Source of the DNA: Candidatus Obscuribacterales bacterium
GTDB lineage: Bacteria; Cyanobacteriota; Vampirovibrionia; Obscuribacterales; Obscuribacteraceae
Direction: 5' to 3'
Length of the DNA stretch: 64,000 nucleotides
Assembly: GCA_031292355.1 (NCBI GenBank)
Contig: JARLHI010000040.1
Location: forward strand, 36,090-100,089
The position numbers and the translations under genes were made by a program. A model generated the notes under the pieces. That model was not told the DNA's origin and did not search any database. It was given only the letters and a program-made list of their open reading frames with translations. Shown one piece after another: positions 30,053 to 51,953 of the stretch; the stretch's first letter is position 1, and every line of letters begins with the position of its first letter.

Positions 30053-30175
30053 CGAGTAGATCTTTCTTGGATGGTGTCAGTTTAACGCAAATTGAATGCC
30101 CGAAATGACAAAAAGAGAGAGTGCTCGCGCGAGATTCGGAACGCTCTCTCATTCTGTTACTTAATTAGTTGTGGG

Positions 30176-30742: not shown

Positions 30743-30913
30743 TGTGGTACCTCATGTTTGAGTTTGCAGCGCGTCGCTCAATTCGAGAGACCCGACGAGG
30801 GACCCGAAATGAGCAAAAAGGGAGAAAAAAGGTGAGACATCAAAAGATGCCCCACCTCCTTCCATTACTTATTCAACTCTGCGATACCATGTGCATGGTA
30901 CTGCGGAGTGGAA

Positions 30914-33088: not shown

Positions 33089-33122
33089 AGCTTGTCCTTG
33101 AGATTGAAGTTACTTGGAAGAG

Positions 33123-33153
33123 TCTCTTTAGCTGCACGTCGCAGCTAAAGAGA
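33123..33153. repeat. perfect 13-bp inverted repeat (hairpin) between pncA and the flotillin-like gene
   Basis: TCTCTTTAGCTGC-ACGTC-GCAGCTAAAGAGA. No strong T-tract follows. Possibly a terminator for pncBA or an operator. Confidence 0.45.
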
Positions 33154-33196
33154 CAGGGTTGGAATAGTCCGTTTACGTTTTACACAGTTGGAACGC

Positions 33197-33853
33197 TTAC
33201 AGAATGTCCGCCGCGGTGATCAACGTGACACCATGGGCGGTGAGATCCGCGTCGTCGGCAGCGGCCATTTCAGGTGCGAGCATCGAGCAGGCATCGGTGA
33301 CAAGATATGTCTCGAAGCCTTCGTCGACCGCGTCTTTGGCGGTATAGCTGGCACAGAAAGGACGTGTGATGCCGACCACAACGACGGTCGTTACGCCCTT
33401 ACTGCGCAGCCAATCGGCGAGGTCTGTTTTCTGACCTTTCTTGTTGTCTCGGAAACCCGAGTAGCTGTCGACCTGTTTGTCGGTCCCCTTGCGGACGACG
33501 TGATCGCATCGCGAGCGGTCGAAACTCGGATGGAATTCGGCACCAGGCGTATTCGCGCGTCCGTGGACGGTCCAGAGCATCTGCTGCACGCCGTGCAGGT
33601 CGATGATCTCGCCGGGGTTTTTACCCAAGTGTTGTTCGGCGAAACTTTCGTGATCCGGCGGATGGTGGTCTGCCGTATCGACGACGAGATTGAACTTCGG
33701 TGACGCCGAAAGCTTGTTGACGTTGTGCACAATGGTTGGCGCTGTGGCGACGGGCAGCTCGCCTGTGCCAGGAATGTTTCTGTCTTCCGGAAAGAAGCAG
33801 TTCTGCCCATCCACGCGGATGAGAGCAGTGGTGCCATTGAACGAGATTGTCAT
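33197..33853 (-). CDS. pncA: nicotinamidase / isochorismatase-family hydrolase
   Basis: ALIRVDGQNCF (DxQxDF-type) motif, VVVVGIT…C catalytic Cys region. Adjacent to pncB. Confidence 0.75.
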   Translation of the reverse strand: MTISFNGTTALIRVDGQNCFFPEDRNIPGTGELPVATAPTIVHNVNKLSASPKFNLVVDTADHHPPDHESFAEQHLGKNPGEIIDLHGVQQMLWTVHGRANTPGAEFHPSFDRSRCDHVVRKGTDKQVDSYSGFRDNKKGQKTDLADWLRSKGVTTVVVVGITRPFCASYTAKDAVDEGFETYLVTDACSMLAPEMAAADDADLTAHGVTLITAADIL

Positions 33854-34002
33854 ATGACCTCTTGCTGGTTGATGATGACTGAGACAATGGTGGCAGAAAC
33901 TGGCACCATTGTCCCCGGAAATCTGTCATGTAAGTTCGCCCGGGCAGCTGAGTGCGCGAGCGAGCCGACATGCTCAGATGGTTTTGAGTGCGATCAGGCG
34001 AC

Positions 34003-35202
34003 CTAGGCTGCCTTTTTCAGCTTCAGCGTCCCGTCTATTGGCCGCCCGTGATGAGTCCAGAGTGCGACCTCGACGGCATCGGGGTCGCCGCTGGCCTTTT
34101 CGGGAGAATCGGAAAGTTTGACGACCGGCACGACGATGCCGCTATGGTCGATCACTTCCGCGAGTTTGATCACGATTTTCAGTGCCGGACTTTGGGCGCC
34201 GTAATCGTTGCTCATGGAGGTACCGATGCCAAACCAGCATTTTCCGCCCTTTTCTGCCACCCACAACTTGATGGCGATCGCTGAATCGACATCATTGCCA
34301 TCGGTGAATCCAAGCGGCTTAGTCACCCAGTTGATGCCCAGCTTCCCGTAGTGAGCGATCATCTTCTCCGCCCAGATGTAAGGATCGGCCGAGTCATGGC
34401 GAACGGAGTCGAACTGGCTCGCGAGCAATTTGTCGAAATCTCGCAGGAAAGCGTCCGTACCAAAGGTGTCCGGAAGCGCGACCCCCAGTGCACCCTGATA
34501 GACATCCATCCAGGCTCGCAGTGCGAAGCGGTTGGCGTGACGCAGTGAGAACAAGGCGGAGTGCGCCATGATCCATTCGTGGGCCATGGTGCCGAGCGCC
34601 TTCACTCCGTATTTCATCGCCAGATAAACGTTGCTCGTTCCGGTGAAATTTGGGTTGTGCTGGCAGATGCGCACAACACGCTCCTGGGCTTCGAAATGTC
34701 GGCGACGACGCGTGCCGAAATCGCCCCAGATCACGTTCGCTTCCGTCAGACGCCTGGACTTCTCGAGCATCAGCTCGTCTTGCCCATCGTCGGTCCAGTT
34801 GGTGTCGATTTCCTCGTAGTAGGTTTCGCTGATCATGGCCAGAAGCGGCACTTCCCAGAGGATGGTGCGGCACCAGAGACCAGCTATCTCCACCTGGAGC
34901 TTGCCCTTGTGCAAGCCGACTTTCACCTCCTTGGAATTGAAGCGATAGTTGGCCAGGTATTCCCAGTAGCCGCGATTGATCCACGGCATGTTTTTTTCGC
35001 ACCAAATTCGCTCTACGAGCGAAAGTTTGGCTTTTTCTGCGGCTTTGATCTTGCGCTTTAGAGCCCGCAGAGCCTCTTTGGTCCAGTTGCCCTTGGGCGC
35101 ACGATCCGTAAACCTGTATTTGACGACGATGTCTGGATACAGGCGCAGAACCGCATTCTGCATCGAAAACTTGTAGAGGTCATTGTCGAGAATTGATCGC
35201 AT
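34003..35202 (-). CDS. pncB: nicotinate phosphoribosyltransferase
   Basis: N-terminus ILDNDLYKFSMQNAV matches PncB (…DTDLYKLTMQQA…). 399 aa. Confidence 0.85.
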   Translation of the reverse strand: MRSILDNDLYKFSMQNAVLRLYPDIVVKYRFTDRAPKGNWTKEALRALKRKIKAAEKAKLSLVERIWCEKNMPWINRGYWEYLANYRFNSKEVKVGLHKGKLQVEIAGLWCRTILWEVPLLAMISETYYEEIDTNWTDDGQDELMLEKSRRLTEANVIWGDFGTRRRRHFEAQERVVRICQHNPNFTGTSNVYLAMKYGVKALGTMAHEWIMAHSALFSLRHANRFALRAWMDVYQGALGVALPDTFGTDAFLRDFDKLLASQFDSVRHDSADPYIWAEKMIAHYGKLGINWVTKPLGFTDGNDVDSAIAIKLWVAEKGGKCWFGIGTSMSNDYGAQSPALKIVIKLAEVIDHSGIVVPVVKLSDSPEKASGDPDAVEVALWTHHGRPIDGTLKLKKAA

Positions 35203-35463
35203 GTTTTGCTCTTTCAGGTTGGTGGTGGGTGCTTGCGTTTGCCTGGCTGCTGTTTGCGCAACTGGGCGGCGAAATCACTGCGAACTAAGCCTGCCGTCTT
35301 TACAGATGCGGAAGTGCAGGAGTGGTGGCTAAAAGGTTTGACTTCGTAGTGAGTGCTATGAAAATTCCGGTGGTTGAGTGTTGAAATACGATTGACCCTA
35401 CCGTGCCTACCGGAGTGATATCAAGGTGGTCGTGGCGCCGTTCACTGGTTTTGTCATTAGTAC

Positions 35464-35519
35464 CTTTAAAGAGAACCTCTTGGCAAATTTGCCGCTTTTG
35501 TAGAACTCTTTAAAGCCGT
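35464..35519. promoter_or_regulatory. nested palindrome upstream of pncB (candidate operator)
   Basis: 10-bp inverted repeat CTTTAAAGAG…CTCTTTAAAG enclosing the perfect 12-bp palindrome GGCAAATTTGCC. About 260 bp upstream of the pncB start on the minus strand. Confidence 0.35.
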
Positions 35520-35638
35520 TACAGAGAGGGATTGGTCGACAGATTCAGTTGTGTCACGGCCTTGTGAACCTAGCGATGCTTCGCGCGAGTGCAATTTTTT
35601 GTTCACGAATTGGCAAGACCGTTCCAAAAGAGAATGCA

Positions 35639-36064
35639 TCATCCCGGGGCGGCGAGGCTCGTGTGGTGCCACATGCCGAAGCCGATGGTCTGAAAGCCAT
35701 GGCGCTCATAAAAAGCCTGAAGCCACGGCTTAGAATCATCGAAGGTAAGACCGAGGTAGCGAATCTTGTAATTGCTTGCCTCAAGAATCAGCCTGTCGAC
35801 CAGGCAACCGCCGACGCCCATCTGACGTGCGGATGGATGCACTGACAGGTCGCAAATTGTTCCGTGTCGGCGATTCCCAGCGAGAAATCCGACGCCTATC
35901 AACGTGCCGGAAGCGTCTCTTGCACCGGCGACAAAAAGAGACTGCTTTAAGCAATCTTGCCACTCTTTTGCACTTTCAGCTGTGAATAGCTGTTCGCGCA
36001 CTGCAAGCACTTCCGCTGGCATGATTATGCTTGCAGATGGGTCGTTCACCGAGAATTTCAACAT
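35639..36064 (-). CDS. GNAT-family N-acetyltransferase
   Basis: Acetyl-CoA binding motif region …RQMGVGGCLVDRLILEA… and C-terminal YERHGFQ. Confidence 0.7.
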   Translation of the reverse strand: MLKFSVNDPSASIIMPAEVLAVREQLFTAESAKEWQDCLKQSLFVAGARDASGTLIGVGFLAGNRRHGTICDLSVHPSARQMGVGGCLVDRLILEASNYKIRYLGLTFDDSKPWLQAFYERHGFQTIGFGMWHHTSLAAPG

Positions 36065-36205
36065 GCTTTCCCTTTGTCTTCAGATGTTTTTTCAGTATCT
36101 TACGACGATCTTCGGGAAGGAGTGCTTCCCGGAAATAAAGAAGAGGGACGCACCTTAGATTTAAGACGCGTCCCCTAGAGTTTAGATCTCGACTGTTATC
36201 GACGA

Positions 36206-38230
36206 CTACTTGCCTGCGTTGCCTGGCGCAGCACAGGAGCTGTCCAGGTTGTCCAAGATTTTATCGACGTCGGCTTGAGAGTCGACATCGTCGTAGTGCT
36301 GTCCGTGACCGTCTGCCAGGGTGTTTCTGGAATACCCGTGGTAGGCAGGGTTGGTTTGCTGCATCAGGGCTGCAAGTACGTAGATGCAGTGATTCTTGGA
36401 CACGGAGATGAGCGGATCGCGGGCCGTTACGTTGAACAGACCGGGATGAGACGCATTCGCTGCGTTCAGCACCAGCTGCTTCGTGCCGGTCAAATTGAGC
36501 GATTCGATTTGCACCACGGTCATCGAGAGCGACGCCCGGTCAAACAGACCAATGCGTACCCAGGAATTCTGTTGCGTGCCGATTGGCTCGAAGTTGACCA
36601 CTCCCTTGAGACCCCAGTGTTTGAAGTCCTGCCAGTAGGGAGAGGCATTGGCATTGCCAGCGTCAGTCGGATTTTCCGAAAGCTCCAACTGGTTGCCGGT
36701 AATGTGCTTGGCCCAGAACGATGAGTCGTGCGCCCAAAGGTCGGCATATTGCCTGGCAAGATCGCTTGGAACGAAGGCCACACCCGGGAATTTTGCAGCC
36801 GCTTGCGACGGCAGAAGATCCTGAATGAAGCCGTGAGACGAGATGGTCATGACGCCGGAGAGATCCGGAATCATCGAGCCCAACTGGAGCTCTTTGTTGA
36901 CGAACGGAATGACGACGTAAGCGTCCTGGTCTGCCGTCAAAGCGATCATGCCGGGTTGCGGCGTGGCGCCTGGATGACGAGCATAGAATGCGCCCATGGC
37001 AAAGACACTTTCTTCGCCAAAGAGGAATTCCGTTTTGATCGGTTCGCCATAACGACCACGCTCGCCGGCATCGACGAGAACTGCTCCTTGCGTACCGCCG
37101 GTCAGAGCTAGCGGATGGGAGAGAAACAGACCCTTTCGATTCTGGATCGCGGCGAGATCGGGGTGGCGGACACATTCCCAGTAGAAGCGACTGGCACCAC
37201 CAGGTCCATCGTTGATAACGATTGGTCGAGGGGTTTTCGAGATCGTTGTGATTGTCTCCTGGTTGTTGCCCGCACAGTAATCCGAAGCCGCCAGGCGAGG
37301 AACCAGGCGGTTATTGTTCGTAGCATCGAGAGCACTTGCGTCGATTTCGGTGATCGAGACGGCGTTTGCCATCTGGTAATCGTAAATCGTCTGCGACACA
37401 TTCGAGACGAAATAGACCAGACAGAAGACGCCACCGACAGCGGTTGCTGCAAGAAACGTACGATGTGCAGCGATTCCCTGGGCGTCACCTGTGCGCCCAA
37501 GAAACGCGAGGACCGAAAGCGCAACTGCAGTTGCAATGACCAGAGTCATGCCGATGTAGCTGTGCGCCGGCCAGAAGCATGCAACGAACAAGGCGGCCAG
37601 AACCGGCGTCGTCAGCCAGTAATAGTTGGCAGTGGAGGTTTTCTGGCGGATCGAGCTGTAGCCGATGATGGCAAGAGTCGGAATCATCGACAGGACGGGC
37701 CACAGGTTGTACACATGGATTGTCAGCGGGTGCACCGCGGGCAATACCGTCGTGTACAGCACATAGTAAGCGCCGAAGACGACAGCCGGGGCCAGGAACA
37801 GCGCAAGCAGTGCCGCCACTACCTTGCGCCAGATGGCGCCTGGCGCGAGGTATGCTGCGCCCCCAGCTGCGAGCACCGCAAGCAGTGCGCACAGCACCAG
37901 AACGATTGCCGGTTGTACGAGAAAGTAGTACAGAACGGCAACCGTCAGGAACGTGAGGCTGGCCACGGCAAATTTGCGACCGAGGTAGTAAGCCCCGCCC
38001 GCTGCGACGACGAGCACGGCCGGAGTGATATAGAATGGCAGGTAACGACCCACCAGTCCAAGCACAAACGCAAGCAGCACGCCGAGGACACCCTGTTCGC
38101 ACTTGACCAAGGTGTCATGGTTGAAAGCTGGCACAGCTCTCGAAACCGGCAGGTAGCGACCGATAGCGCCGCCTGCCGTTGTAAACCAATTCAAAAGTTT
38201 GTTCATCGTTGACCTCGTGTGAGATGTCAT
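36206..38230 (-). CDS. polytopic membrane protein (~8-10 TM) with large extracytoplasmic C-terminal domain
   Basis: N-terminal ~290 aa is strongly hydrophobic. C-terminal ~380 aa is soluble. First gene downstream of the PstS-like gene in the kinase operon. Confidence 0.55.
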   Translation of the reverse strand: MTSHTRSTMNKLLNWFTTAGGAIGRYLPVSRAVPAFNHDTLVKCEQGVLGVLLAFVLGLVGRYLPFYITPAVLVVAAGGAYYLGRKFAVASLTFLTVAVLYYFLVQPAIVLVLCALLAVLAAGGAAYLAPGAIWRKVVAALLALFLAPAVVFGAYYVLYTTVLPAVHPLTIHVYNLWPVLSMIPTLAIIGYSSIRQKTSTANYYWLTTPVLAALFVACFWPAHSYIGMTLVIATAVALSVLAFLGRTGDAQGIAAHRTFLAATAVGGVFCLVYFVSNVSQTIYDYQMANAVSITEIDASALDATNNNRLVPRLAASDYCAGNNQETITTISKTPRPIVINDGPGGASRFYWECVRHPDLAAIQNRKGLFLSHPLALTGGTQGAVLVDAGERGRYGEPIKTEFLFGEESVFAMGAFYARHPGATPQPGMIALTADQDAYVVIPFVNKELQLGSMIPDLSGVMTISSHGFIQDLLPSQAAAKFPGVAFVPSDLARQYADLWAHDSSFWAKHITGNQLELSENPTDAGNANASPYWQDFKHWGLKGVVNFEPIGTQQNSWVRIGLFDRASLSMTVVQIESLNLTGTKQLVLNAANASHPGLFNVTARDPLISVSKNHCIYVLAALMQQTNPAYHGYSRNTLADGHGQHYDDVDSQADVDKILDNLDSSCAAPGNAGK

Positions 38231-38254
38231 TTTCGGTTAGAGGGACTCTGGCGC

Positions 38255-39340
38255 TTATGGCGCCAGGGCTGATTTGCCGTTCACGTCGATGGACTGGATG
38301 AGCTTAGTGGCCTGACTGACGACGTTGTCGGGCAGAGGCACGTAGTTAAGCGAGGCTTCGACCGATTGACCGTCATGCAGTCCCCAGAGCAGAAACTTCG
38401 CAAGCGAGGAAGCGGTGCTTGTGTCGTGTTGATGCTGGTGGACGATGATGTAGGTCGCGGTCACCAGCGGATACGATGAGTCGCCGCCGGCATCGATCAG
38501 ATTCAGGCGCAGATCGTCTGAACCCTGGGCTTTGAAAGCGACGCTCGCGACAGCCTGGCGGATGTTTTCGAGCGTGGGCTGCACGAAATTGCCGCTGGCG
38601 TTTTTGAGGCTGGCCATCGGCAATTTCTTCGCGACAGCGAAGTTGTAATCGGCGTAGCCGATGGAATAAGGATTGCCATTGACGGCATCGACCACCGGTC
38701 CGTTGCCACCTCTGCCGTCGCCGACAGGCCATATTGTGGCAAAAGCGGCTCCGTTAGTTGCATGCCAGTCCTGGCTTGCAACATTCAGATAGCTGGTGAA
38801 ACCGAATGTGGTGCCTGACCCGTCTCCGCGATGGAAAGCGATGATGGGGAAATTGATGTTCGCCAGGCTGGGATTGACCGCGACCAGGCGCGAATCATTC
38901 CAGTTGCGAATCTTGCCCAGATAGATGAGCGCGATTTGCTCGCCGGTCAGATTGAGAGTGCCCTTGAAGCCTGGCAGGTTGTAGGTGATGACAATGCCAC
39001 CATAAGCGGTGGGGATGTGTAGTACATCTTTGCTGCCGCCTTTGGTGTCACTGAGCTGGTCATCGTTCATCGGCACGTCCGAGCCGGCGAGATCCACGAC
39101 CCGATTTTGGAAACGACCGATGCCTGCGCCCGAGCCGATGCCGTCGAATGTCAGATTGCCCGGATTCTTCTGGAAGAAGGACTTCGCCCAGTTGTCGTAG
39201 AGCGGTTTGGCGAAGGTGGAGCCTGCACCGGTGATGGTGGTCGGCTCCGCTGCATTTGCTGGCAATGCGGAGAGCCATGCCGAAGAGAGCAGTGCGGAGC
39301 CAACCGCGGCGACAAGCAATCTCGACTTTGTCATTTTCAT
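38255..39340 (-). CDS. PstS-like phosphate-binding periplasmic protein (orphan, no pstCAB adjacent)
   Basis: Signal peptide. GAGSTFAKPLY…GIGSGAGIGRF…DLAGSDVPM matches the PstS N-terminal lobe (GAGSTF…IGSG.G…ASD). Confidence 0.75.
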   Translation of the reverse strand: MKMTKSRLLVAAVGSALLSSAWLSALPANAAEPTTITGAGSTFAKPLYDNWAKSFFQKNPGNLTFDGIGSGAGIGRFQNRVVDLAGSDVPMNDDQLSDTKGGSKDVLHIPTAYGGIVITYNLPGFKGTLNLTGEQIALIYLGKIRNWNDSRLVAVNPSLANINFPIIAFHRGDGSGTTFGFTSYLNVASQDWHATNGAAFATIWPVGDGRGGNGPVVDAVNGNPYSIGYADYNFAVAKKLPMASLKNASGNFVQPTLENIRQAVASVAFKAQGSDDLRLNLIDAGGDSSYPLVTATYIIVHQHQHDTSTASSLAKFLLWGLHDGQSVEASLNYVPLPDNVVSQATKLIQSIDVNGKSALAP

Positions 39341-39416
39341 AGAAGCCTCTTGGTGTGAGAGAAATCTGGTAGAGGCAGGGTCAACGAATTGACACTGCGC
39401 TCCTCAGAGAAATAGA

Positions 39417-40925
39417 TCAGGCCTTTGAAAGAGCACGCCATCTGGCGACGGCGCGTTCGGGGCTGGTAGCGGAACGCACGAAGAGGGTGCCCCCGAAGAC
39501 CAGCAGTTGAATTAGAAACAGGATGGCCGGAGTCAGCCATTCGAGGTTGTCGATGTCAGCAAAACCACGCTGAATCGCCGCATTCTGCTGCGCCAGGTTG
39601 ATCTGATAGGTCGAGCCCAGCGTGCCATTCTTAGCCTTCTCATCGATCAGCTGATCGAAAAGATAATTGCCTTGTCCAGGATTGCCGCCGGCCAACAGTG
39701 TGATGGCTTTGGCGTGTTGCCCCTGAAGTTCCAGGCTGCGAACTTGCTTGTCGAGGGCAAGGAAATCCGCATAGACTTTGACCGTTTTCGTGGCACCTTC
39801 GAGTTCACCCGGGAAGGTCACGTTATTCAGTTCGTCGGCGATCTCGCCAGAAAGAACGTCAGGCTTGAGCGGACCACCATCGGTGGTGGCGCTCCAACCG
39901 AGACCTCCCTTGACGTACCCGTGCGTGGCGATGGCGTTGATCGTGTCGGCAGTCTGCCCACGACCGAATTTGCCGATTTTGTCGATGTAGGCATCAAATG
40001 CCTTTTGATGTTGATCGGCGTTCGGGCGATCGAGCAGCCACAGGCTCGCTTCCGCCTTTGCCTGCAGCAGGTCGGCTCGAGTTTGCGTCAGCACTTTCAC
40101 TGAAGGATAGGCGGCTGTGCCGGCGATATAGAGGTCTTCATTCGCGTTGATGAAGGCATAGCCACAGTAGGCGAAGAAGATGAAAGCGAGGCCTGTTGCT
40201 GCCGCGAAGAACGGATTGAGACCGCGCTTGAAAGTCCGCGTTAGCAAGATGCCCTGCACATACAACATGAAGAGGACGAAGATGATGCCGACGCCGGCAG
40301 CTCCGAGTCCCACTATGAGGTGATGTACGCGCGAGGCATACTTGTCTTGCAGATGGGCGTCGTTGACCCCCGAGAGGGCATCGGCCGACGGCAACAAAAC
40401 TTCATTCACAACCGTGTTGATGTCACGAGCCGTGGACAGCACCGCCGCGTCTCCATTTTCATGGAAGACACGCGCTTTGGCTGCCAGCATCAGAAACTGC
40501 GCCCAACCTTCCTGCAGACGATTGACCGGGCCAAGTTCACCCTGAGGCTCACTGGGGTAAAGATGATCGGCATCGTCGGTGTAGGTGATGTTGTGAGCAG
40601 CCTCGGTCAGATTGGCGGCCACGAGCACTTTCGTAGCGTCGAAGTCTTTCACCAAGTCATAGTTTTCGCCAGGCTTGGCGTCGAGCTCGGTGTTCAAATC
40701 TTCGAACATGCGCCCGACGCCAGACTTGATGTTCTGAGCTAGCACTACAGACGGTGCGGCATCCACGCCGATGGTTTTGATCAAGTCGTGATCGCTATAG
40801 CGAGCGGTTTCGATGAAACCGAACGCCAGAATGAGGACGAGGAAGCTCAGAACTGGAACGCGGTTAATGCGCGCCAAGGGATGACTGTTTGTCAGCCAAC
40901 CGATCAGTGATTTTAACGACTGCAT
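39417..40925 (-). CDS. membrane protein with two TM segments flanking a large external domain, unknown function
   Basis: N-terminal TM, central soluble region, a cluster of TM helices around residue 230-290, then a second soluble region and a C-terminal TM. Confidence 0.5.
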   Translation of the reverse strand: MQSLKSLIGWLTNSHPLARINRVPVLSFLVLILAFGFIETARYSDHDLIKTIGVDAAPSVVLAQNIKSGVGRMFEDLNTELDAKPGENYDLVKDFDATKVLVAANLTEAAHNITYTDDADHLYPSEPQGELGPVNRLQEGWAQFLMLAAKARVFHENGDAAVLSTARDINTVVNEVLLPSADALSGVNDAHLQDKYASRVHHLIVGLGAAGVGIIFVLFMLYVQGILLTRTFKRGLNPFFAAATGLAFIFFAYCGYAFINANEDLYIAGTAAYPSVKVLTQTRADLLQAKAEASLWLLDRPNADQHQKAFDAYIDKIGKFGRGQTADTINAIATHGYVKGGLGWSATTDGGPLKPDVLSGEIADELNNVTFPGELEGATKTVKVYADFLALDKQVRSLELQGQHAKAITLLAGGNPGQGNYLFDQLIDEKAKNGTLGSTYQINLAQQNAAIQRGFADIDNLEWLTPAILFLIQLLVFGGTLFVRSATSPERAVARWRALSKA

Positions 40926-40959
40926 ATTTTTCTCTCCTGATTGTTTCGTTAAGAAGGGT

Positions 40960-41661
40960 TCAGTCCTGCTCGTGATAGACGATCAGAAAGAAATCACCGA
41001 TCTTGATGGCGTCACCATCTTTGAGTGCGACCGTTTGTCCTTTGGCGATTTCGACGCCGTTGACCTCCGTGAAGTTCTCGGTATCGCATTGCAGTTCATA
41101 GCCGCCGGCCGGTGTGCGATGAAAATAGCCATGCACGCGAGAGACGGTCTGGTCGCCCAGGATCGGGATAACCGGACTCATGCGACCGAACGGTACACGT
41201 ACGCCGCTCAGTGTGTAGCCCGTGCTCGGCACTGTGGGCGCCACCACATCATCAGGACGCAACGGACGCGGATCGAGATCCACGGAAACTTCGATGTAGC
41301 AGAGTTTGCAACTGGTGTTGCCAGCCGTGTTGTCTGCATTCGCCTGGGTGGAAGCGGCCGGCTGCGCGATTGCAGGCGCTTGCACTGCCGGTTGCGGTTC
41401 GGATGATGGCGCAAGCGCAGGTGTGTGCGTATCCGCATCGTCGACATGAACGACGGTGCTTGCTTGCACATTGGTGCTTGCGTCGTCAGTGGCAGGGTCG
41501 TGAACGCTTCCATCCGAATTTAATTGAACGATCGGGTCTGCGTCGCTGAAAGCATGTCCGCAGCCGCTCGAACAGAATAAGTCGTCCACCTCTGCGATCG
41601 TCTTGCAAACAGGGCAGATACGTCCCTGTTTGAGCGGAGACGAAGTCTCGTTGCTGGTCAT
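40960..41661 (-). CDS. zinc-ribbon + FHA-domain protein
   Basis: N-terminal CPVCK…FCSSGCGH. C-terminal FHA (…PFGRMSPVIPILGDQTVSRVHGYFHRT…NGVEIAKGQTVALKDGDAIKIGDFFLIVY). Start re-placed at MTSNE after GAGGAG. Confidence 0.75.
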   Translation of the reverse strand: MTSNETSSPLKQGRICPVCKTIAEVDDLFCSSGCGHAFSDADPIVQLNSDGSVHDPATDDASTNVQASTVVHVDDADTHTPALAPSSEPQPAVQAPAIAQPAASTQANADNTAGNTSCKLCYIEVSVDLDPRPLRPDDVVAPTVPSTGYTLSGVRVPFGRMSPVIPILGDQTVSRVHGYFHRTPAGGYELQCDTENFTEVNGVEIAKGQTVALKDGDAIKIGDFFLIVYHEQD

Positions 41662-41745
41662 AAAAAACTCCTCATTGGTCAAGGGGCAAGCGGACGAACA
41701 CTTGAGTGCTCGTCCGCTCATGCTGTCGCTTTTCGTAAGGAGTCC

Positions 41746-43131
41746 TTACGACTGAGTGGTGGTCGCAGCGGCGGCCGTGGTGTCGGCCGGAGCCGCCGTC
41801 GGTGCAGCGACTGCGCGCGTGCGACGAACGCTCGAACCGGCGTTGATCTTCATGCCGGTCGCGGCGTCCGTGTTCTTCAGCTTCACCTTGCCGGTTGCAG
41901 CGTCCAGAATCTCAACGAATTCCTTCAGCTGCTCAAGCAGATCGATGTCGCCGTCTTCATGCGCTGTCTTGACCAGATCGCCGAGAATATCGCTTGCGCC
42001 GCGGGTGTTGCCACCCTTGAGCAGATCGCCTGCTTCACGCATGCGGCGCTGCGAACCCTCGATGCCCTGAGCCACCTTGACGCCGCGGGTGACGCGCTGG
42101 CTGAGTGACGCTTCCTCCGAGTTGCGCGCCCACTGAGCCTTGATCGGGAACGGATCGCTCTTCACGAGCTGCCCGCCGACTTTGTATTCGAACCAGATTT
42201 TGGCTGCCATCACCGCTGGTGCGTTGCTCGGACGAGCGACTTCGAAAGCGAGGTAGAACAGACGCGTTTCGGCATCCCAGGAACCGAGGTTGACGCGGAT
42301 GAACTTCTCGCCTTCCTTGCTGCAGGCGTTTTCCAGGTCGAGGCTGACCGGGGAGCGCACGGCGATGTCCAGGATGTCGCCCATGTTGAACTTCTGGATC
42401 ACCATGGTCACCCCAGACAGAGCCTGACTGGCTGCCTGAGCTACCATGCCCTCGAAGTCGGCCTTGACTTCGGAAGGATTGGCGAGCACCACCGGCGGTG
42501 CCGAGCCGGTGCCGTCCGAGATCAAGCGCAGCTTGTCCATTTCCCAGTCGGTGCCGACGCCGCGAGCGAGGACTCGCAGAATCTGCCCCTGCTTGGCGAG
42601 ACCCTGGTAGGCAACGAGCTCTTCGCCGACTGAGACGCGATCACCGTAATCACCATCGGTGAGCAAGCCGGCGAAGCCTTCGGTCACTTTGCCGGCCTTT
42701 GCAAGAGCGCAGTAGTCCTCCCGGAAGAGCTGCAGACCGCCGGCTGTCTGGGTCGAACCCTCGAGCGCAGGCAGTTTCTGGCGCAGGGCGTGCTTGGCCG
42801 CCTCGATGTTCTGCGGCGTCGCGAGGGCCGGATGGAAGAGCCGGTGCTTGGACGAGCCGAAGAGGTAGACCGCGACGTAGTTCTGCGGCGACTTGAGCAT
42901 GGCGTCGAGGAAGGCGCACGCCCCTTCGACAGCCGCTTGAATCTTGGCGCCCTTCATGGAGACCGAGATATCCAGAATTACGGCCGCCAGACGCGGAGGC
43001 TGCACCGTCGCTGTGGCATCGAAGCCGACAGGGGTAACGAAGAAGGCGGCGTCCTGACGCGTGGCGTCGGCCTTCAGGATCTCGTTGATGTCGGTCTTGA
43101 TTTGCAGCGAGGGGGAGGCGATGTTTGACAT
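41746..43131 (-). CDS. von Willebrand factor type A (VWA) domain protein
   Basis: MIDAS motif AAVILDISVSM…, then YLFGS. Long C-terminal region. Start re-placed at MSNIASP after GGAG (the ORF track TTG start at 43218 is unlikely). Confidence 0.7.
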   Translation of the reverse strand: MSNIASPSLQIKTDINEILKADATRQDAAFFVTPVGFDATATVQPPRLAAVILDISVSMKGAKIQAAVEGACAFLDAMLKSPQNYVAVYLFGSSKHRLFHPALATPQNIEAAKHALRQKLPALEGSTQTAGGLQLFREDYCALAKAGKVTEGFAGLLTDGDYGDRVSVGEELVAYQGLAKQGQILRVLARGVGTDWEMDKLRLISDGTGSAPPVVLANPSEVKADFEGMVAQAASQALSGVTMVIQKFNMGDILDIAVRSPVSLDLENACSKEGEKFIRVNLGSWDAETRLFYLAFEVARPSNAPAVMAAKIWFEYKVGGQLVKSDPFPIKAQWARNSEEASLSQRVTRGVKVAQGIEGSQRRMREAGDLLKGGNTRGASDILGDLVKTAHEDGDIDLLEQLKEFVEILDAATGKVKLKNTDAATGMKINAGSSVRRTRAVAAPTAAPADTTAAAATTTQS

Positions 43132-43226
43132 ATTTGGCTCCATCAGTGTCATTGAGAATTGGTGATTGTCTGCAAGGAATTTGCAGACTCGATCACATTG
43201 GATACGCACGAAAGTCAAGCAGGCTT

Positions 43227-44399
43227 TTAAAAGTTGATCACAGCGATGGTGTTGTTGTCTGCACCACTTGCTCTTTTGAGGACAGCCTCGGCAAAGCCCA
43301 TGGCGCTCCTCGGATTGCTCGCAAATATCTTGGCGAACTCGCCGGACTGGGGTAAGTCCATATCATGGACGTCATTCCAGGCTCCGTCAGAACAGCCGAA
43401 GATAGACACAAGGGTTGAATCGATGGTCACAGTCGACGTCGACGGTGCATAGATCTCACCCTCAGGCACTTCACCAAGGCATTGCGTCATCGTATGCAAT
43501 TCCTTAGTAGTGAACTTCTTGTAGGCTTCTGCCGCAGAGACACCCGTCTGGTCAATCATCTCGTTGAGAAGGGTATGGTCGCGCGACAGCAGTTTGTCGG
43601 AGTAACCGCAACTCGCAGTCGAGTCACGATAGATGGCATAAAGGCGACTATCGCCGCACCACCCTAGAGACGCCACACCATCATCGATGAAGGCGACGAT
43701 GATGGTGCAAGCTGGAGCAGAGAAGTCAGCGTCGGCGTTGAGTTCGGCTGGGACTTTCAAAACCGCCGACTGGGCAGAATTGATAGCCGCAAGCACGAGT
43801 CCTTCACTGCCCTTCTGGCGACTGAGAGCAGCAATTCTCAGCGTTGCCGATGCGGCTCTGCACGCTTCTTCCGAGGCTTGTTGAGGAGCCTTAGAAGAAG
43901 AGACACCGTCTGCCACCACGAACCAGCTGATTCTCTTGCCGTCGACTACAACGGAGTCCATCGCCGCGTAATCTTCGTTGCGAGAATGGCCGATCGTGGG
44001 ATTGCCGAGATTGCTTCGTGCCACTATATTCGGTGTGACTTCGATGAAGAAGTCATCGCGACATGGTAGCACTGCTTGAACCCAGCACTTCGTGCAAAAG
44101 CCATCTTCATCGAAATTTGATGAATCGGCATTGCAGCCGACACACTTTGGCGCAATATAGTGACGGATGTTATCCGCCTCCTCTGGCACCTGGATGGCGA
44201 CTGCTGCCGCTTGCTCTGTTTTGGGCGGTTCGACTTCGACAATCGTCGCTGCCGCCGGAGTTGTCGTTGCCTTTTCGATCGAGCCGGCATCGTCTTGTGC
44301 CGAGTCGTATTCTTTGCCACACTTCGAGCAGAAAAGATCTCCTGGCTCACGCGTTGGACACGGGTCTCGTCGTGCATTGAGGTAAGGACAGGGCTCCAT
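43227..44399 (-). CDS. zinc-ribbon + PP2C-family Ser/Thr phosphatase
   Basis: N-terminal CPYLN…CPTRE…FCSKCGKEY. PP2C motifs GHSRNEDYAA, VVADGVSSS, GDSRLY, CSDGAW, DNNTIAVI. Confidence 0.75.
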   Translation of the reverse strand: MEPCPYLNARRDPCPTREPGDLFCSKCGKEYDSAQDDAGSIEKATTTPAAATIVEVEPPKTEQAAAVAIQVPEEADNIRHYIAPKCVGCNADSSNFDEDGFCTKCWVQAVLPCRDDFFIEVTPNIVARSNLGNPTIGHSRNEDYAAMDSVVVDGKRISWFVVADGVSSSKAPQQASEEACRAASATLRIAALSRQKGSEGLVLAAINSAQSAVLKVPAELNADADFSAPACTIIVAFIDDGVASLGWCGDSRLYAIYRDSTASCGYSDKLLSRDHTLLNEMIDQTGVSAAEAYKKFTTKELHTMTQCLGEVPEGEIYAPSTSTVTIDSTLVSIFGCSDGAWNDVHDMDLPQSGEFAKIFASNPRSAMGFAEAVLKRASGADNNTIAVINF

Positions 44400-44408
44400 T
44401 GATGCACC

Positions 44409-46712
44409 TCAAATGTATTTGAAGGGCCCTGCTTTGAGCGCCTCCGCGATGAGACTATTGCGTTCGTCTCCAGAGGTGTGACTGGCGCAGATGCTGAGAT
44501 GGAGATTTGCTGCGGTGCGAAGATCGTAGCTTTTGAGCTTGACGCCCATCAGTTTGATCTGAGCATCGGCTGCAACATCGCCGCTTTCGACGGCTCGTGT
44601 TCCCGCCAGATACAAATCAGCGGCCAGACGATGCCAGTCGAGATTGTCTTGCATGACACCGGCGATGATACCGGCGGCCGCAACCAATTCGTCTTTGCCT
44701 GGTTTGCTGCTCGGTAGCGTCTCGATGAGCACCCTTGCTGCCTGCATTTCAGCCGGCACGTGGGCGATCGAAGATGACGGTACTCGCTTAAGGGCTTTCA
44801 CCGCCGAAGCGCGATTGCCTTCAAGTGCCAGGCTGCGAGAGTGAACGAAGGCGGCCATGGCGAATCTGTCGGCATCGACCAATGTGACCAAGTCACAGCA
44901 GCCAATCGCTGTCGAGGTGTCGCCGACAAGCTCCGAAGCAAAGCCCAGAGCCAACTTGGCCGCGGGTTCGCCAGGCAGCTGGACGACGACCGAGCTGTAA
45001 AATTCCACAGCGCGATTGTGATCGCCCTTTGCCAGAGCCAGTAGACCGCGTAACCAAACGGTCTTCCAGTCATCCGGTTCAGACTCTGCCAGGGTGTTGA
45101 GAAGTCCTTCGGCTTCATTGTGTTCGTCGAGCTGGATCAGACAGTGAGCCAGACGAAAGCGTGCCTCGCGTGATTTCGGATGCTTGTCGGCGAGAGCCAC
45201 CAGGACGGGCTTCAACTCACTGGCTGCGGTTGCGGCTTTTAGAGCCGTCTCCACTTCTCCGCGAGCAGAATCGTCCATGTCGATTTTGAGACCAGGCAGC
45301 AAACGCCAGTTGGCTTCAGGCGAGCCGTTGCTGATGTCGCCGTCGAAGAACTCGGACTCGAGTGGCTTGGTCGCACCCGTATCGATTGCTACCACTTCTC
45401 TGAGAACGCCCCAGAGTTGTGCTTCGAATTCGGCTACGGATGAGAAGCGATCGAGCGGGTCGGGAGCCGTCGCGCGCCTGATGATTGCGGCATACGAAGG
45501 ATATTTGTCGAAGTTTTCGAGATCGTCTGGCAGCGAGTAGCGGTACATCTCTTCGAAGTCGAAGACGTTCGAAAGTACAGCCAGCACGCGTCCTAGCGAG
45601 TAGAGGTCCGACTGCTCCGACAGAATAAGGTCGACGCTTTCGTCATCGACTTCGCGCGGAGCATAGCCCTTGGTGGATGTGACATTCGGCATCAGGTTCG
45701 TAGCCAGAACGCAGCCACCGGCGTCGATCATCACCATGCGATTGCCGGTGACCATGAAGTTGCCTGGCTTGATGTCGGGGTTGAAAACCTTCGGCTTCTG
45801 CTCATGGAGGAAGCCGATGGACTGACACATGCCCAGAACATAGGCGATAGACTGCGCGACAGGTAGCGGTTCGTTGTTGTCTTCGTAGATCTGTTCGACC
45901 GTTTTTCCGTCGACCAGCTGCATGGCGATGAGCGGCTGATTCTGGTGGGTTTTGAAGCCGAAGATCTGCACCACCGACGGATGAGAAAGCTTAGCGAGCA
46001 TCTGCTTTTCGGCAATGGCCGCTTCGCGATCCATCTTGTTGTTGGTGATCACGCCCTTGACGATAGCCCAGCGTTCGACGTCGAGGTCCCAGCACAGGTA
46101 AATGTAGCCGCAACCTCCCTTGGCGATGGTGCCTTTCACTTCATATTGGTTGGCGACGATGGTGCCGGGCAACATCGCGTACGAATATGGTGAACCGCAT
46201 TTGGTGCAGACACCAGAATCCGCCAGGTTGCCGTCCTTGTCGCGACGGGTAAGAGGAACCCTCACACCGGGATGGCGCTTGCCGGTCGGATCATCGCAGA
46301 AGCGCTGCTCGACAGGCACATCCCACTTGGTCTTGATCAAGTGCAACGGATCTGTCTGCGGCACTTCGCTCACAGCGACAAAACCGCCGCCCAGGTTGCG
46401 TCGCTTTGAAGAGGAGGTTTGGCTGCTGGCACCGCCCAGACGCTTCTTGTTCAATAGCCCTTGGGCTTGTGCCGCCGGCTTGCCGATGAATCGTACGGAG
46501 CGCCTGGACGAACGCAGAGATGAGCCGCCGATTTTCGCGCTGCTGCGTGCCGAGTTCGTATTCTTCGCCACCGCTACCGCCACCGATGGCAGCAGCGTAA
46601 GGTCAACCATGGCGCCGCAGTCGTTGCAGAAGCCATCTGCGATGACACCGCCGCATTTGGCTCCATTGACTATCTGTTCACATATTGGCATGGCCATTAC
46701 TGATCTCTCCAT
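44409..46712 (-). CDS. zinc-ribbon + Ser/Thr protein kinase (non-RD type) + TPR-repeat C-terminal domain
   Basis: N-terminal CEQIVNGAKCGG…FCNDCGAM. Gly-loop AKGGCGYIY, VAIK-like AIVKG, catalytic loop NPDIKPGNFMV (HRD replaced by NPD), DAG in place of DFG, APE-like region. C-terminal TPR repeats. Confidence 0.75.
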   Translation of the reverse strand: MERSVMAMPICEQIVNGAKCGGVIADGFCNDCGAMVDLTLLPSVAVAVAKNTNSARSSAKIGGSSLRSSRRSVRFIGKPAAQAQGLLNKKRLGGASSQTSSSKRRNLGGGFVAVSEVPQTDPLHLIKTKWDVPVEQRFCDDPTGKRHPGVRVPLTRRDKDGNLADSGVCTKCGSPYSYAMLPGTIVANQYEVKGTIAKGGCGYIYLCWDLDVERWAIVKGVITNNKMDREAAIAEKQMLAKLSHPSVVQIFGFKTHQNQPLIAMQLVDGKTVEQIYEDNNEPLPVAQSIAYVLGMCQSIGFLHEQKPKVFNPDIKPGNFMVTGNRMVMIDAGGCVLATNLMPNVTSTKGYAPREVDDESVDLILSEQSDLYSLGRVLAVLSNVFDFEEMYRYSLPDDLENFDKYPSYAAIIRRATAPDPLDRFSSVAEFEAQLWGVLREVVAIDTGATKPLESEFFDGDISNGSPEANWRLLPGLKIDMDDSARGEVETALKAATAASELKPVLVALADKHPKSREARFRLAHCLIQLDEHNEAEGLLNTLAESEPDDWKTVWLRGLLALAKGDHNRAVEFYSSVVVQLPGEPAAKLALGFASELVGDTSTAIGCCDLVTLVDADRFAMAAFVHSRSLALEGNRASAVKALKRVPSSSIAHVPAEMQAARVLIETLPSSKPGKDELVAAAGIIAGVMQDNLDWHRLAADLYLAGTRAVESGDVAADAQIKLMGVKLKSYDLRTAANLHLSICASHTSGDERNSLIAEALKAGPFKYI

Positions 46713-46824
46713 TAAGGTTTGATGGACTGAATTCCAGGCAGGGTCTCAACCGGACCCTACCAGGCTAGACTTGAGCCCTCATCGGGTTTTCATTGAGACT
46801 GACCTGGAAATCAGAGCGAAAATT

Positions 46825-47865
46825 TCAGGTTTTGCTGCCGGCGTCGGCTTCGAGCCGCGCGAGCATCTCCTGGAATTTCTGCACCGCGTCCTCGGCCGCC
46901 TTCACATCGCACGGGCGCTTGCGAGCGAGCGTGAGAACGAGAGCCGCCTGACTGTTCAGCGCTTCGTTTCCACCTTCGCCGGCAAATTTGCCGCGCTCGG
47001 CTGCCCGATACAAGGTGGAAAAGAATCCCTCCACAGACTCGGGCTGAGCGGCCTGTTTGTTCTTGGCCTTGAGCGTCTTCTGACGTTCCTCCAGCAGTGC
47101 CTGGGCAGTGGAGAACCACGAATATACAGTGAGAGCCGCCTGCGGGAAATTGTTCTCGTCTGCCGCCATTTGTGCGGTGGTGAGTGTCGTCGCCAGGGCG
47201 CCTATCGCATCCTTTTGATCGACATTTTCGGCCGCCGCGCCGAGAACGATGGAAACCAGCTTGACCTGCGTCGCAACGACCCTGGTGTTGATCTTCTCGA
47301 GATCGCTGAGGAGCGTCGTGGCGTCGGCGAGCTTGTTGCGGACCGAAGTTTCGTCGGTCGAGAAAGAATCGACGGCAGTGCTTGCGGCGATGATGAGTGC
47401 CTCGAGATTCGTAGCTTCGGCCGAAACGTCGGCGTTGGGATTGGTCTTGAGGGCATCGCGGATGGTGTCAACCGCCTTGGCGCAGGCGGCGACTTCTGGT
47501 AGCTCGAGAGCGCCCTTGGCTGAGGCGATTTCTTGAACGCTCGCGAAGGTAGCGAGCTTGACGGCGAGCTGAGGAGGCATGCCGTTCGCGGCCTCGCGTA
47601 AGCTTGCTACAACGCTGGACAAATCACCGAGAGCGGCGGTGCCGGTTGTTTTCGCGCGGGCGATGATGGCATCGAGTTGAGCGAGCGCCTGTGCGCGTGC
47701 CTGCGGGTCGGTCATCGAGCGAGCTTTGTTCAAAGCGGCAGTGACGCCCGGTTCCACGGCAGTCCAGGCTTCGCGGGCGGCTGTGCTAGCTGTGCGTGCA
47801 TACTGACCGGCCTTGTGAGCAGCGCCAAGAAGGGTCTCGAAGATATCGGAAGACGACATTCGCAT
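46825..47865 (-). CDS. Ala-rich all-helical hypothetical protein, first gene of the kinase operon
   Basis: 346 aa, predicted helical and Ala-rich. 112-nt gap to the kinase gene on the same strand. Confidence 0.5.
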   Translation of the reverse strand: MRMSSSDIFETLLGAAHKAGQYARTASTAAREAWTAVEPGVTAALNKARSMTDPQARAQALAQLDAIIARAKTTGTAALGDLSSVVASLREAANGMPPQLAVKLATFASVQEIASAKGALELPEVAACAKAVDTIRDALKTNPNADVSAEATNLEALIIAASTAVDSFSTDETSVRNKLADATTLLSDLEKINTRVVATQVKLVSIVLGAAAENVDQKDAIGALATTLTTAQMAADENNFPQAALTVYSWFSTAQALLEERQKTLKAKNKQAAQPESVEGFFSTLYRAAERGKFAGEGGNEALNSQAALVLTLARKRPCDVKAAEDAVQKFQEMLARLEADAGSKT

Positions 47866-48313
47866 TCTCCATTGAGTTGAAGCGGTTGACAGTTAAAGAG
47901 TTGCTCTAGCCCCGCCCAATACATCTGGCACCAGTCACCACTATCACCAAACCAAAAGCGCAAACGACGTCGCTTAGACCAGAAGTGCTAAGAGACGATG
48001 TAAGTGATTGGTGATAAGCGCTGAGTAGTAAGTTTTTCTGCTGCGAGTAAGTATGTGGGGAGTACCTTCACCCTACAATTCTTATATGCGCAGATGCCAA
48101 GAACTTTGCGCACCTGCAACAAACTTTGGGTGAATCAGTTCGCGCTACGTTGATGAGTACAAAACTTAAACACATCAACATTTAGATACGAAATAGTGTC
48201 ATCGATGTGGCAAGGCTATTTATGCGGCTTTTCTGTGAAAAACGAAAGAGATTATAAACAGCATTGGTATGATAAAATGACGGCGCCAAGTTTAAAAATA
48301 AAGAAAAACGAAA

Positions 48314-51410: not shown

Positions 51411-51710
51411 TCATTCTTTCGGTGGCGGCTTATCCAACATAGTTTGGGTGCCTTGATTGCCTGTTAATGATGAGGTCACGGCTTTATAGAGCGAATCTCT
51501 GCATGTATAGACGCCAGCGCCAAGCGCGATAATAACCACGATTATAATCAATGGAGCGTTATTTGAGGGCGCTTTGTATTTTGGTACGATGTATTTTTGC
51601 CCGCAGCTTTTGCAGGTGGAGAAGTCCGTGACATCGACTTCGTTGCAACGATTACATCTTTTAGAAACAGCATCACTCATGAGCACGTACTCCAAATCGG
51701 TAGCCACCAT
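51411..51710 (-). CDS. zinc-ribbon + single TM small protein
   Basis: CNRCNEVDV…CKSCGQKY, then a hydrophobic helix (LIIIVVIIALGAGVY). Start uncertain (alternative ATG at 51680 after GGAG). Confidence 0.45.
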   Translation of the reverse strand: MVATDLEYVLMSDAVSKRCNRCNEVDVTDFSTCKSCGQKYIVPKYKAPSNNAPLIIIVVIIALGAGVYTCRDSLYKAVTSSLTGNQGTQTMLDKPPPKE

Positions 51711-51953
51711 TAGCGGCAACCAATTGAGTAACTGACTAACCCGTAGGTATAGCTCAAAAGAAAGCTTTTATAGATGTACTTCGATAATATCACTATTGAG
51801 CTTTGGTAACTGGAAATAACTGTTGGAATTTCATTTGTCCTTTTCGGCAAAGTCGCATCTATAAAATAGACAGTAGCGTAGTCGGACTTTTACCACGCTA
51901 CTGTCTATCAGAAAGTAAGAGTTTGAAAGTTACACAGAGTCAGTCTATGCGCA

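Follow-up and report, generated by a model that had tools for sequence, protein, structure and literature searches.

The stretch of DNA considered here, hereafter the window, is a 64,000-nt segment of a Candidatus Obscuribacterales genome (GCA_031292355.1, contig JARLHI010000040.1, positions 36,090 to 100,089 of the forward strand). It includes eight minus-strand genes in a row, with short gaps between them, running from 47865 to 36206 in window coordinates. Among these are genes for a PknG-family Ser/Thr kinase, a PP2C phosphatase and an FHA-domain protein, each of which begins with a cluster of four cysteines of the zinc ribbon kind, and for a vWA-domain protein without such a cluster (Table 1). 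An earlier note on this sequence had drawn attention to the clusters; they are indeed found at the start of all three proteins, and the four cysteines are invariant in the ortholog alignments of the kinase and the FHA protein.

The cysteines are arranged as C11-x8-C20-x8-C29-x2-C32 in the kinase (ribbon K), as C4-x9-C14-x9-C24-x2-C27 in the phosphatase (P1), and as C16-x2-C19-x10-C30-x3-C34 in the FHA protein (F2), counting from M21; in the numbering of the full open reading frame (ORF), the last are C36/C39/C50/C54. The 20 ORF residues before M21 are probably not translated, since in both close relatives the FHA protein begins at the position corresponding to M21. The pattern “C-P-x-C…” that had been ascribed to all three proteins, when taken literally, holds for the FHA protein alone, and while the N-terminal ribbons are real, a second ribbon in the phosphatase (P2; C86/89/102/105) had been overlooked. 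Alignment of orthologs shows the four cysteines to be kept (in the kinase and FHA protein), but their spacing as originally written is not the conserved feature. In the Obscuribacterales lineage (the window and two other loci, L081 and L083), knuckle spacing is relaxed in K, P1, and F2, and a further FHA-protein ribbon, F1, has been lost; the first knuckle of K and of P1 is stretched to C-x8/9-C, and the second knuckle of F2 is C-x3-C. L083 reads CPYDC at the first knuckle of P1, which points to residues inserted there in the window lineage.

Table 1. Genes of the apparent operon and features within them, in window coordinates.
Feature	Position	Strand	Basis
All-helical coiled-coil-like protein, 346 aa, without known family	46825..47865	-	
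PknG-family Ser/Thr kinase, 767-aa ORF (NCBI start M6 at 46697)	44409..46712	-	Pfam, AlphaFold2 (AF2)/Foldseek
Kinase ribbon K (C11, C20, C29, C32; CEQIVNGAKCGGVIADGFCNDCG)	46614..46682	-	Alignment, AF2
Rubredoxin-like metal site of kinase (residues 139-172)	46197..46298	-	Alignment
PP2C phosphatase, 390 aa, two N-terminal ribbons	43227..44399	-	Pfam, NCBIfam, PDB matches
PP2C ribbon P1 (C4, C14, C24, C27; CPYLNARRDPCPTREPGDLFCSKCG)	44316..44390	-	Ortholog comparison
PP2C ribbon P2 (C86-x2-C89-x12-C102-x2-C105; CVGCNADSSNFDEDGFCTKC)	44085..44144	-	Ortholog comparison
ArnB-like vWA protein, 461 aa from ORF M30	41746..43131	-	AF2 model, Foldseek
ArnA-like FHA protein, 233 aa from M21 (ORF reaches 41721)	40960..41661	-	Pfam, ortholog profile
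FHA-protein ribbon F2 (CPVCKTIAEVDDLFCSSGCG)	41557..41616	-	Ortholog alignments
FHA domain (ORF residues 178-242)	40996..41190	-	Pfam PF00498, E=2e-8
GlnX-like signal-transduction membrane protein	39417..40925	-	NCBIfam NF058618, below cutoff
PstS-type phosphate-binding protein	38255..39340	-	TIGR00975
Multi-pass membrane protein, 674 aa, last gene of apparent operon	36206..38230	-	No family match

Pfam matches to the window ribbons are all sub-threshold: Zn_Ribbon_1 for P1 (17.1 bits), DZR_2 for P2 (17.4 bits), and Zn_ribbon_3 for F2 (17.0 bits), with none for K. Orthologous phosphatase N-termini exceed the thresholds for both Zn_Ribbon_1 and DZR (41.0 and 37.4 bits in L005, 43.6 and 43.0 bits in L004). 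Judging from their sequences, all three Cys4 clusters are true ribbons, of the Zn_Ribbon_1/DZR kind, and are predicted to bind zinc; a long disordered linker joins each of them to the rest of its protein.

Related loci were collected from one genome per species, giving 80 in all (L numbers; P numbers designate protein family representatives). Ribbons were counted by regular expression, and misses in L006 and L026 were settled by eye. The gene order kinase-PP2C-vWA-FHA is found in Actinomycetota, Cyanobacteriota (Nostoc, Tolypothrix, Calothrix, and Pseudanabaena), Armatimonadota, Acidobacteriota, Dormibacterota, and one metagenome-assembled genome (MAG) of the Pseudomonadota; the order kinase-PP2C-vWA is shared by the window and more than 50 loci, and the vWA and FHA genes adjoin in the window and 56 loci. 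Wherever all four genes are present (51 of 51 loci), the kinase, the phosphatase, and the FHA protein all have ribbons, typically one or two on the kinase and two on each of the others. The closest operon relatives outside the Obscuribacterales lineage are only ~33% identical.

Each ribbon has a recognizable form among these orthologs. The kinase ribbon, C-x4-C-x-G-x-I-x-D-G-Y-C-x2-C-G, is single in 35 loci and double in 15. P1 reads CPxC-x10-FC[EG]xCG, and P2 (CxxCG…DG[YF]CxxC) is found in 41 of 51 phosphatase orthologs. F2, CPxC-x8-10-FCExCGYDF, occurs in 56 of 56 FHA-protein orthologs, its four cysteines invariant in alignments of 17 and of 29 of them; F1, CPxGH-x-S-x3-D[YFW]CxxCG, is present in nearly all lineages other than that of the window. 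Many actinobacterial orthologs have the kinase ribbon as a tandem duplication (L015, L022, L034, L036-L038, L041-L043, L046, L049, L058, L060, L062, L065, L069, and L075), and the variant found in Streptomyces contains an insertion (CQRPGCxGxYEDVGGGELYCDTCG). The vWA protein, which had been said to lack the module, does lack it, both in the window and in all orthologs examined (ribbon in 0 of 27), as do orthologs of the coiled-coil protein encoded upstream of the kinase (0 of 20). No N-terminal kinase ribbon was found in any of the six canonical PknG loci that have full flanks and no PP2C, vWA, or FHA genes (0/6); all six belong to a single clade, the Pseudonocardiaceae.

The sub-threshold Pfam scores and irregular knuckle spacing of the window proteins might suggest that their cysteine clusters are functionless features of chance or composition. 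When each protein was shuffled, however, the probability of such a motif in the first 60 residues was 7e-4 for the kinase, 1.3e-2 for the phosphatase, and 3e-3 for the FHA protein, and only 6 of the 134 window ORFs of at least 100 residues have one; a chance origin is therefore excluded. With the cysteines invariant across phyla and ribbons in every complete operon, this vanishingly improbable explanation is already refuted by the conservation data.

The five ribbon classes were compared by hhalign between their profiles, the control being profiles with the cysteine columns fixed and the others shuffled (scores of about 10±3 to 10±4). The highest score was for F2-P1 (56.4), followed by K-P2 (39.4), P1-P2 (36.3), F2-P2 (35.6), F1-K (26.9), K-P1 (21.5), and F1-F2 (19.7); that for K-F2 (15.8) was not above the control. 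The closest relative of the kinase ribbon is thus the second ribbon of the phosphatase rather than the ribbon of the FHA protein. The scores therefore describe one related set of ribbons with two subtypes, P1/F2 and K/P2/F1, so that the three N-terminal ribbons are not of one type, as had been supposed.

The kinase belongs to the PknG family: the kinase, rubredoxin-like, and TPR domains and the overall PknG fold are all present. From its N-terminus it consists of the ribbon, a disordered Ser/Arg-rich linker, the rubredoxin-like domain, a Hanks-type kinase domain, and the TPR domain, with Pfam matches to PknG_rubred (PF16919; 48.2 bits, cutoff 28.5), Pkinase (70 bits, E=2.4e-19), and PknG_TPR (PF16918; 111.8 bits). 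Its AF2 model (predicted local distance difference test score, pLDDT, 80.6) matches Mycobacterium tuberculosis PknG (2PZI) in Foldseek with E=4.3e-37 and template modeling (TM) scores of 0.69/0.80 over 691 columns, and 7MXB with E=1.6e-31. The protein is 100% identical to P0001, from a Candidatus Obscuribacterales MAG (Melainabacteria). Residues K219, D313, N318, and D330 are invariant in an 18-sequence alignment, as are the four ribbon cysteines and G27. In the model, the ribbon (residues ~10-35) forms short strands with pLDDT ~74 and is followed by a linker with pLDDT 25-30, and so has the look of a module on a tether; the phosphatase and FHA protein have comparable low-complexity linkers. 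The PknG_rubred match spans residues 102-178, where AF2 confidence is ~50. In the window lineage, the first knuckle of this domain is C139…H147 (CDDPTGKRH) instead of CxxC, and the second is C169-x2-C172; the first reads CANPAH in P0003 and CENGH in P0005. From the sequence, the site may be Cys3His.

The phosphatase matches Pfam PP2C_2 (E=3.8e-11) and the NCBIfam Stp1 family (E=3e-18); PDB matches span residues 147-388, and the metal-binding motifs RNED, DGVSS, SDGAW, and DNNT are present. In the FHA protein the ribbon is followed by ~100 residues of low-complexity linker and then by the FHA domain, in which the phosphothreonine-binding residues G159-R160, S174, H177, and N196 are conserved. 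The window FHA sequence alone is uninformative against the PDB (E>0.5), and a profile of its orthologs is needed; this is collinear with archaeal ArnA through both ribbon and FHA domain (8S05_C, E=1.1e-9; 5A8I, E=2.5e-9), while all its other PDB matches cover the FHA domain only. The likeness to GarA/OdhI, the FHA substrates of the PknG pathway that regulate TCA-cycle enzymes, is at the domain level only (E~1e-12), the ribbon-linker-FHA architecture being a different one. An extra CxxC pair, CKLC (41301..41312, minus strand; residues 118-121 from M21), lies just before the FHA domain; it is CKIC in L081 and missing in L083, and other lineages have a conserved Trp there.

The vWA protein has a split beta-sandwich, a vWA domain with a complete MIDAS (metal ion-dependent adhesion site) motif, and a C-terminal helical domain; D55, S57, S59, and D160 are invariant among orthologs. 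The catalytic or binding residues are intact throughout, in the kinase, PP2C, and FHA domains as well as the MIDAS. The AF2 model (pLDDT 83.6, predicted TM score 0.81) is closest in Foldseek to 4FX5, an actinobacterial ortholog (E=7.5e-32; E=2e-158 for the ortholog profile), next, over its full length, to ArnB in 8S05 (8S05_A; E=9.8e-20, TM 0.59/0.70, 443 columns), then to the ArnB paralog 5A8J (E=1.1e-17), and then to Sec24 and Sec23 (~E=1e-11). The family comprises some 720 clusters at 50% identity (E ≤ 1e-30). Its C-terminal tail is strongly conserved in orthologs as M-x-L-[DE]-T-[RA]-S-T-K-T-x-R-[VI], and reads …SS-VRR[TV]R… in the window lineage (41749..41830, minus strand); on its sequence, the tail is a candidate phospho-acceptor or docking motif. 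Two family representatives are single-polypeptide fusions: P0186 (650 aa) is vWA-ribbon-ribbon-FHA, and P0166 (567 aa) is vWA-FHA with no ribbon.

Longer vWA homologs were considered as further ribbon fusions and rejected: P0066 and the second vWA protein of L013 have hydrophobic, Arg/Ala-rich N-terminal extensions instead. These belong to a paralogous subfamily (L013 14453..16591; P0066; many of P0112-P0167) with an N-terminal extension of 190-470 aa rich in Arg/Ala and hydrophobic repeats, often beginning …DRGTxLGxxTRxLT…; from its composition, it may be a membrane anchor. In L013, the gene for the extended paralog has the ordinary vWA gene on one side and the FHA gene on the other.

Downstream of the FHA gene, the predicted membrane protein matches the GlnX family model, a subfamily model, with E=1.3e-36 and 126.6 bits, under the curated cutoff of 250. 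A jackhmmer search gave homologs in 64 related loci; in actinobacteria their genes are upstream of the kinase gene, and in cyanobacteria and the other phyla outside the actinobacteria they are downstream of the FHA gene. By the same method, 60 of 80 loci encode a homolog of the coiled-coil protein (a family of ~350-430 aa, all-helical; for example L005 8366..9586 and L028 8367..9698) immediately upstream of the kinase, against 0 of 6 canonical PknG loci, for which the expected occupant of this slot is GlnH. For the 346-aa window protein itself, Pfam, NCBIfam, and the PDB gave nothing apart from coiled-coil noise. The linkage of these two genes to the other four defines what is therefore a six-gene system, in which PknG/GlnX-type sensing is joined to an ArnAB-like switch.

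The PstS-type protein, encoded where the canonical PknG system has GlnH, scores 307.6 bits to TIGR00975 (cutoff 205). Its gene is beside the GlnX-like gene in the window and its close relative L081, and in 0 of 80 distant loci; with the PstS-type protein as query, the distant four-gene loci yielded no gene for a binding protein. There are no pstCAB genes near it. By analogy with GlnH-GlnX-PknG, the protein may be a phosphate sensor that provides an input to the kinase. The 674-aa membrane protein, which has a large C-terminal domain, matched no Pfam or NCBIfam family and has no homolog in the distant loci; a 670-aa gene in L083 (17699..19711) has the same position and a similar size.

Consensus scans, the only basis for either assignment, gave a promoter-like site upstream of the operon (48269..48296) and a terminator-like hairpin of 14 bp (36144..36175) 3' of the gene for the 674-aa protein. 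The operon and its downstream neighbors (~30000..48000) have a GC content of 54-59%, against 46-50% in the flanks; further GC-rich blocks of the window are at 10-12, 24-26, and 56-62 kb. Two other window ORFs that had been noted for N-terminal cysteine clusters do have them, but no link to the operon was found. One, at 51411..51719 (minus strand), is small, with a single CxxC-x16-CxxC ribbon followed by a hydrophobic, transmembrane-like segment, and has a weak DZR match (E=0.018). The other, at 19163..19906 (plus strand; 247 aa), has a seven-cysteine N-terminus (CSDCGNLTYSDCQICAQCSKGYDECQRC) whose cysteine pattern is unlike that of the operon ribbons, and no Pfam or NCBIfam match.

Parts of this system resemble several that are already known. 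In the ArnA-ArnB motility-repression module of Sulfolobus acidocaldarius, which has the kinases ArnC and ArnD and the phosphatase PP2A, ArnC phosphorylates the helical domain of ArnB, the FHA domain of ArnA binds the phosphothreonines, and PP2A reverses the modification. ArnA consists of a zinc finger, a disordered linker, and an FHA domain; ArnB of vWA, beta-sandwich, and helical-bundle domains. In an ArnA-ArnB cocrystal reported in 2026 (PMC12852372), the ArnA zinc finger (C21/C24/C35/C38) is docked on unphosphorylated ArnB, against both its beta-sandwich and its helical domain. The authors compare this with Sec23/24, whose zinc finger is fused in cis, call ArnAB an archaeal ortholog of this core, and name Catenulispora 4FX5 as a structural ortholog of ArnB; the text consulted does not discuss the gene neighbors of 4FX5. 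The operon shares with ArnA-ArnB a pair of adjacent genes, one for a Cys4 ribbon-linker-FHA protein and one for a partner with split beta-sandwich, vWA, and helical domains, and the x2/x10/x2 spacing of the ArnA zinc finger is also that of P1 and F2 in the orthologs. It differs in that the operon also includes the kinase and phosphatase genes, whose products likewise bear ribbons, that the kinase is of the PknG family and linked to a GlnX-like sensor, that most bacterial FHA orthologs have two ribbons, and that there is no archaellum. The Sec23/Sec24 core of COPII likewise has a zinc finger, a vWA “trunk,” a beta-sandwich, and a helical domain, but there the finger is in cis, and here it comes in trans from three proteins; the operon also has no gelsolin domain and no link to a vesicle coat.

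The second point of reference is the PknG-GlnX-GlnH-GarA/OdhI pathway of Mycobacterium and Corynebacterium, which has the same type of rubredoxin/kinase/TPR kinase, genes for a membrane protein (GlnX there, a GlnX-like protein in the window) and a periplasmic solute-binding protein alongside, and an FHA protein as the probable phospho-dependent partner. Canonical PknG, however, has no N-terminal ribbon and no downstream PP2C, vWA, or FHA genes, and in the window the binding protein is of PstS type instead of GlnH, the FHA protein is ArnA-like instead of GarA-like, and a conserved coiled-coil gene occupies the slot beside the kinase.

In the TerY-P triad (Anantharaman et al. 2012, as cited in PMC10542128), a TerY-like vWA protein, a PP2C phosphatase, and a Ser/Thr kinase with a zinc ribbon make up a predicted phosphorylation switch. 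A vWA gene, a PP2C gene, and one for a ribbon-bearing kinase are in one operon here as well, but the TerY-P kinase ribbon (or oligonucleotide-binding fold) is C-terminal, where the window kinase has its TPR domain, the ribbon being at the other end; and the window system adds the FHA reader, a GlnX-like protein, and a PknG-type TPR kinase. Assignment to TerY-P or another defence system was rejected: PADLOC gave no match for the phosphatase or vWA protein, and only generic matches for the kinase. Deinococcus radiodurans DRA0331-DRA0334 is also a four-gene set of vWA protein, Ser/Thr protein kinase, FraH-like FHA protein, and FHA-PP2C, for which the vWA protein was proposed as a scaffold; its kinase is a transmembrane one and not of PknG type, its PP2C carries an FHA domain and not ribbons, and the paper makes no mention of zinc and does not discuss ribbons. 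FraH of Anabaena consists of a double zinc ribbon, a Pro-rich linker, and an FHA domain, the same ribbon(s)-linker-FHA architecture as in the operon; it interacts with a kinase and a phosphatase in affinity purification-mass spectrometry. As a direct ortholog of the FHA protein it was rejected: it begins MIVCPNCN, against …CPKGHES… in the operon-encoded cyanobacterial FHA proteins, and because of this difference it is more likely a paralog.

Ribbon domains, zinc finger-FHA/vWA pairs, TerY-P triads, and the Deinococcus vWA/kinase/FHA/PP2C operon are thus known already. A literature search found no description of the present operon or of ribbons on all three enzymes, and no paper with both “PknG” and “zinc ribbon.”

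What could the ribbons be for? The reading we put forward, with a probability of roughly one half, is that they are docking modules that tether the kinase, the phosphatase, and the FHA reader to the ribbon-less, ArnB-like vWA protein. Docking is suggested by the fact that ribbons strictly accompany the vWA gene (51/51) and are absent from partner-less PknG (6/6), by a likeness among the ribbon classes that goes further than cysteine spacing, by the tether-like anatomy, by the fold and architecture matches to ArnB and ArnA, by the P0186 and P0166 fusions, by the intact catalytic and binding residues, and by the precedent of the ArnA zinc finger docked on ArnB (PMC12852372). Co-assembly on a common scaffold had also been the proposal of the earlier note. 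It fits the co-occurrence and the likeness to ArnAB, which make the vWA protein the candidate scaffold, but the ribbons are not all of one subtype.

Several observations weigh against docking of this kind. K and F2, not being significantly similar, need not share one docking site. A profile of the ribbon only, searched against the PDB, returns generic Cys4 matches (the MetRS knuckle, Nop10, rubredoxins) with similar E-values, ArnA among them at E=0.03; the ribbon is too short for subfamily assignment, and its sequence does not tie it specifically to the ArnA zinc finger. The ribbon-less PknG loci, being a single clade, amount to one evolutionary event; the two fusions could be gene-calling artefacts (read-through); and the change from STKTxRV to SS-VRR in the window lineage weakens the case for a phosphothreonine site in the vWA tail.

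Nucleic acid, membrane, and other partners are also possible ligands. The ribbons might bind the cytoplasmic face of the GlnX-like protein, the coiled-coil protein, the membrane, or each other, so that the enzymes would be recruited to the sensor and not to the vWA protein. The GlnX-like and coiled-coil genes (64 and 60 loci) are linked to the operon as tightly as the vWA gene, two ribbon subtypes could have two partners, and the long hydrophobic N-terminal extensions of some vWA paralogs hint at a membrane-proximal system. We nevertheless consider this doubtful: the only structural precedent for a ribbon of such architecture sits on its vWA partner (PMC12852372), and contact with GlnX needs no ribbon, since canonical PknG works with GlnX and does not have one. 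Still less probable is a nucleic-acid-binding role, by which the ribbons would bring the three proteins to DNA or RNA. Zinc ribbons, those of RanBP2 type among them, can bind single-stranded RNA, an ArnA homolog of S. tokodaii was reported to bind a promoter, and such a role was proposed for the TerY-P kinase ribbon (PMC10542128). The ribbons of the operon, however, are short, with acidic or neutral flanks (DEDGFC, EVDDLFC) and no basic patch; Pfam and NCBIfam gave neither a DNA-binding domain in the operon nor an enzyme acting on nucleic acids; and the ArnAB study saw no sign of DNA binding, the zinc finger being occupied by ArnB (PMC12852372).

The Cys4 sites might instead be redox or zinc sensors, as the rubredoxin domain of PknG is, switching all three proteins together under oxidative stress. 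The PknG family already has a Cys4 rubredoxin-like module beside its kinase domain, and the Deinococcus vWA/kinase/FHA/PP2C operon was reported to be induced in an OxyR mutant. The long disordered linkers between the ribbons and the catalytic or FHA domains would be odd for an allosteric sensor, and the constant co-occurrence of a ribbon-less vWA gene would be left without explanation, and we think this improbable; redox sensing and docking are not mutually exclusive.

If the ribbons do dock on the vWA protein, the kinase, as writer, would phosphorylate either this hub or the Ser/Thr-rich linker of the kinase itself; the resulting phospho-site would then be bound by the FHA domain, as reader, and the tethered phosphatase, as eraser, would reset the switch. 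As in the PknG pathway, input would probably be conveyed by the GlnX-like membrane protein, which in the window lineage is paired with a PstS-type phosphate binder instead of the amino-acid binder GlnH. A more far-reaching version, which we regard as unlikely in its entirety, would make the operon a bacterial counterpart of ArnAB and Sec23/24, in which three proteins supply the zinc finger in trans and compete or alternate at one site on the vWA protein, forming a self-contained write/erase/read switch driven by signals outside the cell by way of the GlnX-like protein; in this lineage, with its orphan PstS, the switch would be a phosphate-sensing one distinct from PhoR/PhoB.

The ribbons are the hallmark of this bacterial operon, which is widespread and uncharacterised and consists of genes for the coiled-coil protein, the PknG-family kinase, the phosphatase, the ArnB-like vWA and ArnA-like FHA proteins, and the GlnX-like sensor. 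Little is known of the way in which the Hanks-type kinases and PP2C phosphatases of bacteria recognize their particular substrates. If the docking interpretation is true, short zinc ribbons on flexible linkers would act as address tags, a simple and testable docking code around a vWA hub, in an operon whose known holders include Streptomyces, cyanobacteria of the Nostoc type, Acidobacteriota, Armatimonadota, and Melainabacteria. It would also connect three subjects at present pursued apart: nutrient sensing by actinobacterial PknG/GlnX, the ArnAB switch of archaea, and the prokaryotic ancestry that has been proposed for the Sec23/24 core; and the exchange of GlnH for PstS in the window lineage suggests that the same chassis may be rewired to phosphate sensing.

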